Assembly: GCA_964016885.1 (NCBI GenBank)
Contig: OZ024746.1
Coordinates: 30,938,001 to 31,002,000 of the forward strand
Length of the DNA: 64,000 nucleotides
DNA from: Eledone cirrhosa
Taxonomy: Eukaryota
Direction of reading: 5' to 3'
Part shown: in pieces, positions 9,981 to 52,422 of the stretch
Position numbering within the stretch: the stretch's first letter is position 1
Layout of the letters: the number at the start of each line of letters is the position of its first letter
The notes under the pieces: generated by a model
Told to the model about the DNA's origin: nothing
Database searches by the model: none
What the model saw: the letters and a program-made list of their open reading frames with translations, nothing else
Position numbers and translations under genes: made by a program

Positions 9981-10548
<568 letters not shown>

Positions 10549-15157: not shown

Positions 15158-15160
<3 letters not shown>

Positions 15161-15199
15161 CGAAACGGCTTGAGCTCAGCCGTCGGGGTCCTACTCGTT

Positions 15200-15237
<38 letters not shown>

Positions 15238-15259
15238 CATATCGTCATTATTTATCTAC

Positions 15260-15302
<43 letters not shown>

Positions 15303-15342
15303 ACGAAACGGCTTGAGCTCAGCCGTCGGGGTCCTATTCGTT

Positions 15343-18023: not shown

Positions 18024-18178
18024 TCTCTCCCTTCTTTCGCCTAAAAGAAGTAATTGACATAGTCACTACTTTAAAACTGATAGCGTATGGTCTTCTAAAT
18101 GTTTTTAATTAAACATATGGTATATTGCCAAATATACTATACATGCATTCATATCTATATTTATATATATATATATAT

Positions 18179-18566
18179 ATTAAAATACAAATATTAATAA
18201 AATAGAGGTTTTTTTGATCAATTAAATTTTATTATACATATTTCAGAGGTACAACAGTACGTCCTCATCAGACAAAATATAATGATACATGACATACCCT
18301 GAGATGTTTAATCTACCTTGATTAAATCTTAACCATTTAACATCTCAGGGTATGTCATGTATCATTATATTTTGTCTGATGAGGACGTACTGTTGTACCT
18401 CTGAAATATGTATAATAAAATTTAATTGATCAAAAGAACCTCTATTTTATTAATATTTGTATTTTAATATTAATAACTCTTGAAAATTATTTTCTGTAGA
18501 GTGCTTCCAATCTACTGTAAAACTCATTCTTTGGTGTACTCATTGAATCTTGTTTAACTCTTTAAT
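18179..18566 (+). mobile_element. PLE-like hairpin element with 3' tail in (TA)n
   Basis: Arms at about 18179-18308 and 18338-18470 are reverse complements; unpaired tail to 18566. Confidence 0.8.
18369..18421 (+). ncRNA. Minimal type I hammerhead ribozyme motif (mirror copy 18226-18278 on minus)
   Basis: ATTTTGT-CTGATGA-GGACGTAC-TGTT-GTACCTCT-GAAA-TATGTA-TA-ATAAAAT. Confidence 0.75.
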
Positions 18567-18576
18567 ACATATATAT

Positions 18577-18702
18577 AACCAAAGAAGTGTGGTAAGGAAC
18601 CAGATGGACCATAACGCACCAGAGTACTCCATACTTAGGGTAGTAGAGTGGGTAATAGGAAAATGTTTGACACCGACGGCAGAGCTCAAGCCGTTTCGAC
18701 GG
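18577..18702 (-). mobile_element. Truncated copy of the GCCGTCGAAACGGC family
   Basis: Homologous to 44657-44790, 53750-53863 and 61130-61260. Confidence 0.75.
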
Positions 18703-18722
18703 ATATATACACACACACACAC

Positions 18723-18802
<80 letters not shown>

Positions 18803-18807
<5 letters not shown>

Positions 18808-20875
18808 AAAGAACACAAGAGCGTCTACAACATCAAAAGATTTTTATTGGCTTACAATGTTTCTTCCTTGCGTAACCGTAGGATTCGTCAGAGCTATAAA
18901 AGGGGTTTGATTGGTGTTATGGACTCTACCAACCAAACATTCAATGTGTGTATGTTTATGTGTGTGTGTATGATGTGTGTGTATATGTGTATATGTATGT
19001 ATATTTTTTCTGTAGAAATCTTCTCAATATGTGGTGTTTGGCATGAATTCCTCCTATAATACTCTTCTTTGAGAGGAGCACGATATGTTGAGTAACACAT
19101 ATGTATTGTCGAAGTTGAAACTGAGAACCACCACCCCTCCTGCTGACCCAAATGTTTACTGAGGACCAGAACACCATTCTCCGCAATATAAGAGAGGAAT
19201 GCGCTTGCCGGACTATTGATGACCATAACATCACATTCCAAGGTAATGGCAAAACACAGTGAATGCTATACACGACCAGAACACCACAACATGCACATCG
19301 GAGCAACACAGATATAATATCAATAGGCGAATCAATTGAATTTTTTGAGTTGAAATACATATAAATATGTGTCTGTGTGTATCGGACACACGTACACATA
19401 AAGAAACTGCTGACCTAAATGTACCTGTCATGCCTGTCTGAATTCCTAAGAGAATTTTCGGTCAGTTACTATCTTGACCGATTAACCCCACAATTACTAC
19501 GTAGCGGTTCTTGCACGTGACTGCTGGACCCGGATGAAACGAAGACGAAGAATTTCCTTGCGTACCGTTTTGTACCACAGATGCGATCTCACTCTGCCTC
19601 GTTAATGTTCTATCGACACCAAAGTTCTACGTTCGGGGCAATAGAATTGAATCCAACCACCGACAACATAGTTGGATGACCGATAATCACACCAAACCGG
19701 AGTACTGTGATCCTTGTGATTTCGAGATATACAACCACTGACACTGTTACGAAGACCAGAAAACCATACTCCATAATATTGAACCAAGTGATTGATTTGT
19801 GCGACCAAAATAACACCACACACATATTGAACTAGGAATATTGGATCCTCCGTCAATGTCTGGGTGAGCAAAAATAGATTTCTATCTGCATTGGAATTTA
19901 CGAACTTGTGCATCTGCTGTGGTGTCAAAAACAAACGCACATAACCGCACAGATAAACAATGGACTATGCCACGTGGCTTGAACCTGTAAGTGAATTGAA
20001 GGTTCTGTAACTCTGATATACAGATTATTTATTATTAAGATGTATAAACTTGACATAACTATTATCATCTTATATTCTCTCAACTAATCACATTTGATCA
20101 TCTTTCTCTATCCCGTTTTCTCCCCCCATAATTATAATATTTTTATTTGAAAAAATCAGTTTTTTTACTTTGTGTTTTCCCCTTCAAATACTTGCTTATA
20201 TTTCTTTATATATTCTCTATATATTTTTATATATATATATTTTTTATCTTTATTCTTATTTTCACTTTTATCCTCCTTTATATTTTACCTTATTCTTACT
20301 TTTATACCTTATTATAGTGTAATCTTCCCCATGCTTTATTATACATTATTAATTATAGATTATTATTATTATTACTCTTTTTCCATTTCTAATTACCTCA
20401 TGTACTTTCTCCTCCGTTATATATATATATATTGTATGCCCTTTGTGCTTGTGTAGCCTCTGCACACCCTCTGCACCCTACTATCGACGCCACCCCATCT
20501 ATGGTTCAGCTAACCACTCGACTCCCGGGAATGAATATGACCGCAGCTAGTAAACAAGGACCCACACCCCACCTCCCGCACCAAAATTAGACTTATCGTC
20601 CCCTACTTTTGCTCTTTACTCTCTTTACTCTTTGTTCTTGAATGTTTGGTTGGTAGAGTCCATAACACCGATCAAACCCCTTTTATAGCTCTGACGAATC
20701 CTACGATTACGTAAGGAAGAAACATTGTAAGCCAATAAAAATATTTTGATGTTGTAGACGCTCTTGTGTTCTTTATCATATATACGGCTCTGCTCCAAAG
20801 CATAGAGCTAATTATTATGCTGCCAATACCTTAATGGGACACGGGTATACAATACCTAACTCCTATTAACCTAAG

Positions 20876-20880
<5 letters not shown>
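18803..20880 (+). mobile_element. 2.1-kb element bounded by ~140-bp inverted hammerhead-containing repeats plus a 3' tail, in (TA)n
   Basis: 18803-18943 is the reverse complement of 20638-20780 with a few mismatches; tail at 20781-20880; interior holds minus-strand ORF fragments 18894-19241 and 19602-19940. Confidence 0.8.
20681..20740 (+). ncRNA. Type I hammerhead ribozyme motif (mirror copy 18842-18901 on minus)
   Basis: TTTTATAGCT-CTGACGA-A-TCCTACG-ATTA-CGTAAGGA-A-GAAA-CATTG-TA-AGCCAATAAAA. Confidence 0.75.
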
Positions 20881-20972
<92 letters not shown>

Positions 20973-21489: not shown

Positions 21490-22205
21490 GGATTGATAGA
21501 GATAGGTATTGATAGACATAGAGAGGGGGAGAGTCTGGTAGTGATGGATAGAGTGAGAAGAAATGAGAGTGTTGTATGGTAGATATAGAAAGGGAGATAG
21601 TTTGATGGTAATTGATATAGAGAGGGGAGTTGGGAGAAAGAATGAGAGGAGTGTTCTATTGTAGATATAGAGAGGAGGATAGTTTGATGGTAACTGATAT
21701 AGAGAGAGGGGTTGGAGAATGTGTTGTATATTAGATATAGACGAGGGAGAGATTGATGTTTATTGATATAGAGAGGTGTATTGGAAGAGAGTTCCGTGTA
21801 GTAGATATAGAGAGGGGGAGAATTTGGTGGGTGTAGATATACAGAGAGTGATAATGGGAGAGTGCCGTGTAGTAGATATAGAGAGGGGGAGAGTTTAGAG
21901 GTGATTGATATACAGAGGGGAATTTGGAGAGATAAGTGTAGATAAATATAGAGGGTGAGAGAGAGAGAGTATTAGTCTTAGACTGGGATAAGAGTATTAG
22001 TCTTAGACTGGGATAAGAGTATTAGTCTTAGACTGGGATAAGAGTATTAGTCTTAGACTGGGATAAGAGTATTAGTCTTAGACTGGGATAAGAGAGGCGG
22101 TGTAGTGGTAGATTTAGAGAGGGGTAGAGCTTAGTTTAGTAGATACAGAGCGGGAGATTAAAAGAGAGTTTTGTGTGATAGACGTTAAGATGGGGAGAGT
22201 TTGGT
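21490..22205. repeat. Degenerate purine-rich tandem repeats (TAGATATAGAGAGGGG) containing a perfect 5 x 25-bp array at 21966-22093
   Basis: AGAGTATTAGTCTTAGACTGGGATA x5; similar degenerate units at 34940-35100. Confidence 0.85.
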
Positions 22206-52214: not shown

Positions 52215-52422
52215 TAGTAACACAACAGTTAGTTCACTATACCGAGAACAGTTGTTTCACCTTATGCGGATCCTCAGCTCGAACTGGTAATCGATTAAAT
52301 TGATTACCAGTCCGAGCTGAGGATCCGCATAAGTTGAAACAATTGTTCTTGGTATAGTGAACTACCAAATTCGTCCCATGGACTGAGTGTTCTACCACTA
52401 CGGATAGTACCTTCCAGTGTTC
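52212..52422 (+). mobile_element. PLE-like hairpin plus tail in (TA)n
   Basis: Arms at 52230-52292 and 52301-52365; tail to 52422. Confidence 0.78.
52312..52352 (+). ncRNA. Minimal type I hammerhead motif (mirror copy 52242-52282 on minus)
   Basis: CCGAG-CTGAGGA-TCCGCATAAG(T/G)T-GAAA-CAATTG-TT-CTTGG; palindromic CAATTG. Confidence 0.7.

Follow-up and report, generated by a model that had tools for sequence, protein, structure and literature searches.

The stretch of DNA analysed here, called the window, comprises 64,000 nucleotides (64 kb) of the Eledone cirrhosa genome (contig OZ024746.1 of assembly GCA_964016885.1). At 18803-20880 it holds a segment set in a (TA)n run, with inverted arms that each bear a hammerhead ribozyme motif, and with an interior that contains an old duplication and two stop-free antisense frames (Table 1).

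Table 1. Features of the segment and its flanks, in window positions
Position	Strand	Feature	Basis
18725..18802		(TA)n target microsatellite, left part	
18803..18944	-	Inverted 5'-truncated second copy of the element's 3' end (= 20638-20779), without tail	Alignment; junction unique in genome
18850..18894	-	Type I hammerhead motif, inverted arm; predicted cleavage after GUA ending 18853	Descriptor match
18894..19265	-	123-codon stop-free antisense frame, partly microsatellite, chimeric across the junction	
18945..19010	+	End of TG/TA microsatellite tract, part of the family 3' UTR, holds the truncation point	
18945..20880	+	Main body: very probably 5'-truncated 3' UTR / pseudo-LTR of a Hydra-type Penelope-like element, without RT-EN ORF	
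19017..19990	+	Non-repetitive UTR interior, no codon-level constraint detected	
19109..19442	+	First unit of old internal duplication; GACCAGAACACCA-like motifs at 19164, 19221, 19274	
19602..19964	-	120-codon stop-free antisense frame, no ATG start, without credible homolog, likely untranslated	
19642..19983	+	Second unit of old internal duplication; GACCAGAACACCA-like motifs at 19754, 19803	
19985..19995		Acceptor-like ttcacttacag on minus strand; donor-like GTAAGT at 19987 on sense strand; neither invariant	
20688..20732	+	Type I hammerhead motif, pseudo-LTR; predicted cleavage after GUA ending 20729; two-pair helix III in near-palindromic stretch	Descriptor match
20785..20880	+	Optional PLE 'tail', ~95 nt, right end only	Two family 3' ends
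20881..20968		(TA)n target microsatellite, right part	

Inverted arms and hammerhead motifs

The arms (18798-18944 and 20638-20784) are identical at 143 of 147 bases and lie between the (TA)n runs. The first-pass annotation had described them as 140-bp inverted termini, each with a CUGACGA hammerhead; arms of 147 nt with a motif in each were indeed found, but they are not the termini of a fixed 2.1-kb element, because the 26-mer across the 18944/18945 junction occurs once in the host genome and, upstream of 18945, the element sequence goes on in other copies. At other loci the inverted arms vary in length and breakpoint, and most family copies have none; an inverted piece is present at 7 of 30 loci that include the start of the family's open reading frame (ORF), with breakpoints different from those of the window copy (the count leaves out an eighth locus, a 55-nt microsatellite match). 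Terminal inverted repeats fixed in all copies, as in a TIR DNA transposon or MITE, were not found.

Reading outward (+20691 and -18891), each arm contains the string GCU-CUGACGA-helix II-GAAAC-AUU-GUA-AGC. A custom structural descriptor of the type I hammerhead matched exactly twice in the 64 kb, against a mean of 0.01 (maximum 1) in 100 local shuffles. Transcripts of either strand would bear one outward-reading motif, as had been proposed. Rfam returned neither a hammerhead nor any other credible RNA family for the window, the element or the motif alone; helix II of the motif opens with an A-A apposition in place of G-C. Among 84 family copies, only two core positions had at least three variants, namely N7 (C in 67, T in 9, A in 6) and the cleavage-site base H17 (A in 76, T in 7), and these are the hammerhead core positions that tolerate change. 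Judged by the descriptor and by this pattern of variation, the motifs are hammerheads, and their cleavage is predicted. A single ribozyme per strand cannot, by hammerhead chemistry, free a monomer with both of the ends needed for a circle, and no self-cleaved monomer circle is therefore expected from the window copy; tandem copies, in which two same-strand motifs flank a unit, could release a monomer, and for these, cleavage of family transcripts by the motif in dimeric form is predicted. The hammerhead and the inner 3' end are 90 nt apart, so that every 3' fragment that is inverted brings the motif to the other strand. A 15-bp complement to helix II at ~19551-19570 was discarded, 24 of 150 shuffles being as good and the pairing being uncompensated across copies.

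The descriptor also caught several unrelated type I motifs in loci L031-L100 (e.g. L085, L087, L092, L094, L096 and L039), and such motifs are therefore common in the host genome. Within the window, two more inverted pairs with outward CUGANGA...GAAA cores occur at 18157-18490 (-18271 and +18376) and at 10188/10349, with arms identical at 81/82 and 82/82 bases; they did not pass the strict hammerhead descriptor and are likely the inverted 3' ends of other Penelope-like element (PLE) families. A short inverted pair at 52277/52317 has CUGAGGA...GAAA cores 40 nt apart and is identical at 62/82 bases over the stretch compared.

The parent family and its RT-EN protein

The interior had 605 candidate matches in the host genome (3.0 Gb) and the right end 1667, and in each set the 40 that were scored showed 97-100% identity; the interior is high-copy, contrary to the single-copy interior that the first-pass annotation had named as grounds for abandoning its reading. 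Divergence from the copy majority was 0.8-3.4% in 26 copies and 1.0% in the window copy, in a sample that leans young because the best-scoring copies were taken. In 17 of 20 loci, each retrieved as 10 kb, at least part of a long sense-strand ORF, ~846 aa in full, lies upstream. From hammerhead to hammerhead, the unit spans 4870-5123 nt in eight loci and 5668 nt in one (the tenth pair of hammerheads, with 2075 nt between them, belongs to a partial tandem), and the stop codon lies 2065-2250 nt from the hammerhead in nine copies. The unit is therefore 4.9-5.1 kb long with a 3' UTR of ~2.1 kb, of which the window copy represents the last 1.93 kb. This agrees with the earlier remark that no RT or GIY-YIG motif was recognised in the interior, as the RT-EN ORF is absent from the window copy and sits upstream in longer ones.

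RT motifs can be read in the ORF of the longer copies. Sequence searches of Pfam and PDB assigned no RT family to it, and telomerase RT accounted for nine of the top ten Foldseek matches of its AlphaFold model (114 sequences, pLDDT 81.6). At the C-terminus, GIY-YIG (Pfam PF01541) scored E 0.004, below the cut-off, and the same domain was above the cut-off for the homologs P0003 and P0045. Among 8000 sequences scored, 899 were homologs of the RT-EN protein, mostly unnamed and ~710 aa long, the few named ones being molluscan; the 120 listed have DKT in 106, CxCx5C in 105 and RW[KR] in 111. The features that define EN+ Penelope-like elements, a TERT-related RT with a C-terminal GIY-YIG, are present in the longer copies and not in the window copy. 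The diagnostic motifs of the Hydra clade, as given in PMC8557442, are RWK, DKT in place of DKG, a GxKF/Y that is not conserved, CxCX5C, the absence of CCHH, and CxxC with CxH. The ORF has RWR (conservative for RWK) and DKT, with no DKG and no GxK[FY], and at locus L091 it has the CxCX5C linker, no CCHH, and CxxC and CxH around conserved E and N. These motifs point to the Hydra clade, to which the family is assigned as a probable member. In the ORF of L091:2704-4905, residues ~372-461 and 561-589 form long N/T/K/H-rich linkers of low confidence, which bring the RT-EN protein to ~130 aa above the median homolog.

The copies L081/L066 and L090 belong to a diverged subfamily with deletions of 16, 12 and 47 nt in the UTR interior, and in L066 an insertion of 2 nt lies in helix II of the hammerhead, whose cleavage triplet is GUU. 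Three or more further Hydra-like families (L101:3320-5610 (-), L038:5250-7260 (-) and L049:1950-4650), with 30-47% protein identity, are nested in the same TA runs, and one of them has 799 candidate matches and a hammerhead-like motif with a variant core. The 3' regions of sibling Hydra-like families in the host genome measure ~0.6, 0.9 and 1.4 kb, one of them with its own microsatellite tract, and lengthened UTRs are therefore not unique to the window family; none of these regions resembles the interior discussed below.

The interior of the 3' UTR

The two units of the internal duplication align with a score that 0 of 300 shuffles reached in four scoring schemes, and five sites match the GACCAGAACACCA-like motif with no more than three mismatches. 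The protein motif that had been seen to be shared by two minus-strand ORFs is likewise above chance (BLOSUM score 46, 1/1000 shuffles), its basis being this real old DNA duplication; frame pairs on both strands score alike (46, 47, 39 and 37), which argues for a duplication of DNA rather than for one conserved frame. The ORF pieces themselves (112 and 115 aa) exist, as stop-to-stop frames of 120 and 123 codons whose shorter versions begin at GTG and TTG. They had been called non-repetitive, but the second crosses the TG/TA microsatellite (~18945-19010) and the junction into the inverted arm, and is therefore partly an artefact of the insertion.

Coding potential was judged from variants common to at least three copies, a proxy for change in the master lineage, against singletons. 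The positive control, the RT core (43 copies), gave 28 synonymous versus 13 non-synonymous shared changes, distributed 7/8/26 over the codon positions (Fisher P 1e-6 vs singletons). Over the interior (68 copies), shared variants fell 42/42/36 by codon position (P 0.74), with no codon bias in any frame; the first ORF had 7 synonymous versus 24 non-synonymous changes (P 0.61), the second 7 versus 12 (P 0.24, at low power) and a third interior frame 16 versus 38 (P 0.86). Frameshifting indels within the first ORF comprised 11 nt in three copies, 47 nt in two and 1 nt in four, and the 11-nt insertion, near codon 46, was present at three loci and also in the sequencing runs X2 and X5. The stops that bound the antisense frames are found in the family majority, so that the window copy did not decay from an open master; together with the codon-blind shared variants, they leave the decayed protein proposed for this copy unsupported. 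The interior is likely an untranslated, non-coding UTR. A non-coding interior, or a match to a known PLE ORF or UTR, had been named in advance as evidence against the first-pass reading, and the interior does read as a PLE 3' UTR.

A small antisense protein still made from the interior by the active element is very improbable. Of the best-scoring 150 of 880 candidates, 97 keep the 120-codon frame open and 53 have a stop in it; among 20 copies chosen for such stops, a stop at codon 113 is common to 19 and one at codon 109 to 9 (of 120 codons). These stops trim only the last 8-12 codons and are therefore weak evidence against coding. However, open frames in young copies merely mirror the master sequence, the frame has no ATG start, its shared changes are mostly non-synonymous, and the 11-nt insertion interrupts it in three loci and two outside runs. 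The acceptor-like string that had been placed before it is present on the minus strand, but all three phases stop after 19, 33 and 5 codons, leaving it unconnected, and its AG is lost in 7 of the 20 inspected copies (those chosen for stops). A sense-strand intron starting from GTAAGT at 19987 is unsupported, with no spliced joint in contigs and GT changed to GC in 14/68 copies. Among sequencing runs on record, none listed as containing the sequence was an RNA run, and run X1 (RNA by guess only) yielded one 205-nt contig at a depth of 2.4.

What does count against the UTR reading is a deficit of stops that this reading does not fully account for: the interior minus strand has 29 stops versus 47 expected, none of 2000 dinucleotide shuffles is as low, a second frame of at least 120 codons arises in 0.2% of shuffles, and among 236 control strands only two non-family strands scored lower. 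This deficit, the significant internal duplication with its recurring motif, and the want of any interior homolog in the sibling families would fit the same PLE anatomy with a UTR interior that is the relic of a captured host exon or antisense gene, in either case with an internal repeat, already non-coding in the master before the present subfamilies. We consider such a relic quite unlikely. The real PLE ORF has no three-frame stop deficit (ratio 1.1-1.25), so that the deficit alone is not a coding signature, and the similar scores of the duplication frame pairs on both strands are those of a DNA repeat. Nor was a credible protein relative found. The interior frames gave nothing near the cut-off in Pfam, NCBIfam, PHROGs or PDB sequences, and the search for protein homologs of the frames 18959-19414 and 19605-19964 at E 0.01, within protein lengths of 83-266 and 66-210 aa respectively, gave none (4 and 2 candidates, none of them scored). 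A length-free representative search with 19605-19964 produced two matches, to a bacterial-type Ig-repeat protein and to a tandem-repeat translation, which were set aside as sums of weak matches of 16-30 aa (best 30 bits). The top ESM Atlas match, an AI-2E transporter (0.90, 155 shared features), lies within reach of chance sequences, and the second frame had no usable match there. None of 24 windows of 150 nt had a fold z-score below -2.2. A host-genome tblastn for a source gene returned family copies only among the best 150 of 880 candidates, a result in which a diverged source gene could not have been seen.

Since the sibling families have no homolog of it, the interior was either gained in this lineage or has diverged beyond recognition. 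A broader proposal is that a Hydra-type family doubled its length by means of ~1 kb of foreign sequence in its 3' UTR, either a coding stretch that was captured, is internally repeated and has since decayed, or a cis-acting RNA/DNA module based on the five GACCAGAACACCA-like motifs, and that this sequence was kept by an active master through hundreds of recent insertions. We hold this to be unlikely; if true, it would represent cargo capture by an EN+ Penelope element.

Insertion layout and relation to known elements

With high confidence, the segment 18803-20880 can be regarded as the long 3' end, 5'-truncated, of a Penelope-like retrotransposon that is young, high-copy and equipped with Hydra-clade motifs, the insertion having occurred within a (TA)n run and the left arm being a second, inverted 3' fragment that likely derives from the same event. 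Family copies end at two fixed sites ~95 nt apart, 20784 or ~20878, followed by TA, and their 5' ends vary; 35 ends have the tail, 28 run straight into TA and 2 are other (loci not dereplicated). The window copy has the tail on its right and none on its left. A variably truncated 3' piece, whose 5' breakpoint differs from locus to locus, precedes 28 of the 30 loci that include the ORF start, and (TA)n, which forms both flanks of the window copy, also follows both family 3' ends in outside sequencing runs. Partial tandems, an adjacent inverted 5'-truncated copy and an optional tail at one end are the PLE layout described in PMC8557442. One Hydra element in its supplement, Penelope-13_HM, has such an inverted copy at the 5' end, and each of its strands bears a hammerhead. 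Pairs of hammerheads in opposite orientation, 100-700 bp apart, had been noted in PLEs in 2014 (PMC4209133). The hammerheads in both polarities are a known by-product of PLE insertion, and the element belongs to a known retrotransposon clade, in which it is either new or not yet catalogued.

According to PMC11167929, a PLE protein nicks and extends both target strands in vitro, starting at two sites that delimit the tail, from which we infer two priming events at one (TA)n site. The endonuclease would nick (TA)n, and reverse transcription primed at one strand would start at the tail end (~20880), run for 1.93 kb and halt in the UTR microsatellite; a second cDNA would be primed by the opposite strand at the inner start (20784) and extend for ~147 nt, and both cDNAs would then be joined 5' end to 5' end. 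The UTR itself was probably lengthened by the old duplication and by the microsatellite tract. A short interspersed repeat of another kind occupies window 18601-18705, immediately to the left of the TA run; it also adjoins family copies in L005, L006, L017, L018 and L022, and words similar to it recur at window 15160-15330. At window 21966-22094, a perfect 25-nt tandem repeat of ~4 copies lies inside a degenerate 70-nt purine-rich array (21500-22200).

The long near-perfect inverted arms, with a hammerhead motif on each strand, would fit a non-autonomous unit of 2.1 kb, retrozyme-like or viroid-like, that undergoes transcription and self-cleavage in both polarities, or a TIR DNA element. There is very little probability in such a unit, which is largely refuted by a junction that is single-copy in the genome; arm lengths and breakpoints differ at other loci, and one ribozyme per strand cannot release a circularisable monomer. 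Of the label 'non-autonomous PLE/retrozyme-like', the relation to PLEs survives; instead of a non-autonomous unit, the segment is a truncated copy, unique in its form, from an autonomous family that encodes RT+GIY-YIG. The likeness to viroid-like circular RNAs with ribozymes in both polarities consists of one hammerhead motif per strand. The window copy differs from them as a genomic by-product of inverted insertion, and the layout taken for viroid-like is the PLE inverted-copy structure already published (PMC8557442, PMC4209133). With non-LTR retrozymes it shares the condition of a non-coding, PLE-derived copy with a type I hammerhead, but it forms no head-to-tail tandem of ribozyme monomers, is not amplified as a unit and has an autonomous parent, whereas in non-LTR retrozymes each unit of a tandem repeat has its hammerhead (bioRxiv 10.64898/2026.07.22.740005).

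As a truncated PLE, the segment belongs to a family that shares with the Hydra clade of C-terminal EN+ PLEs (Craig et al. 2021, PMC8557442; e.g. Penelope-13_HM and Hydra-1_Obim) the single ORF of RT and C-terminal GIY-YIG, DKT and RW[KR], the CxCX5C linker without CCHH, CxxC/CxH around the catalytic E/N, (TA)n targets, and a 3' type I hammerhead in which one additional base flanks helix II on either side, a trait of many of the Hydra motifs listed. The inverted 5'-truncated copy that puts hammerheads on both strands is shared with Penelope-13_HM. The window family differs in a unit of 4.9-5.1 kb, against 1.1-3.0 kb in the 27 families listed (a length 'generally' under ~3 kb being typical of the clade, not defining), in the ~2.1 kb between stop codon and hammerhead, with the microsatellite tract and the old internal duplication, in an ORF that reaches ~846 aa and includes a long low-complexity linker, where 120 homologs have a median of 710 aa, in RWR instead of RWK, and in a tail of ~95 nt, against the 30-40 nt described for PLEs. 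Its hammerhead resembles minimal or PLE-type hammerheads (Cervera and De la Pena 2014, PMC4209133) in being of type I, with a short near-palindromic helix III predicted to need a dimer, in its long helix II and pseudo-LTR location, and in the dual opposite-strand motifs; it lacks the G10.1-C11.1 pair, and its two motifs are separated by 1.8 kb, compared with 100-700 bp there. A Hydra element with a 2-kb 3' UTR was not found in a literature search or among the 27 families of the PMC8557442 supplement (1080-3045 bp); the parent family may be catalogued already, for instance in Repbase or Dfam.

As it stands, a single truncated copy of an abundant retrotransposon has little significance, and outward-reading hammerhead pairs in animal genomes should be read first as PLE inverted ends. 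For specialists the value is modest, in a young and abundant Hydra-type family of about twice the described length, with two sharp 3' ends and hundreds of datable junctions, which makes it good material for testing models of two-strand priming in PLEs and the role of long PLE UTRs.
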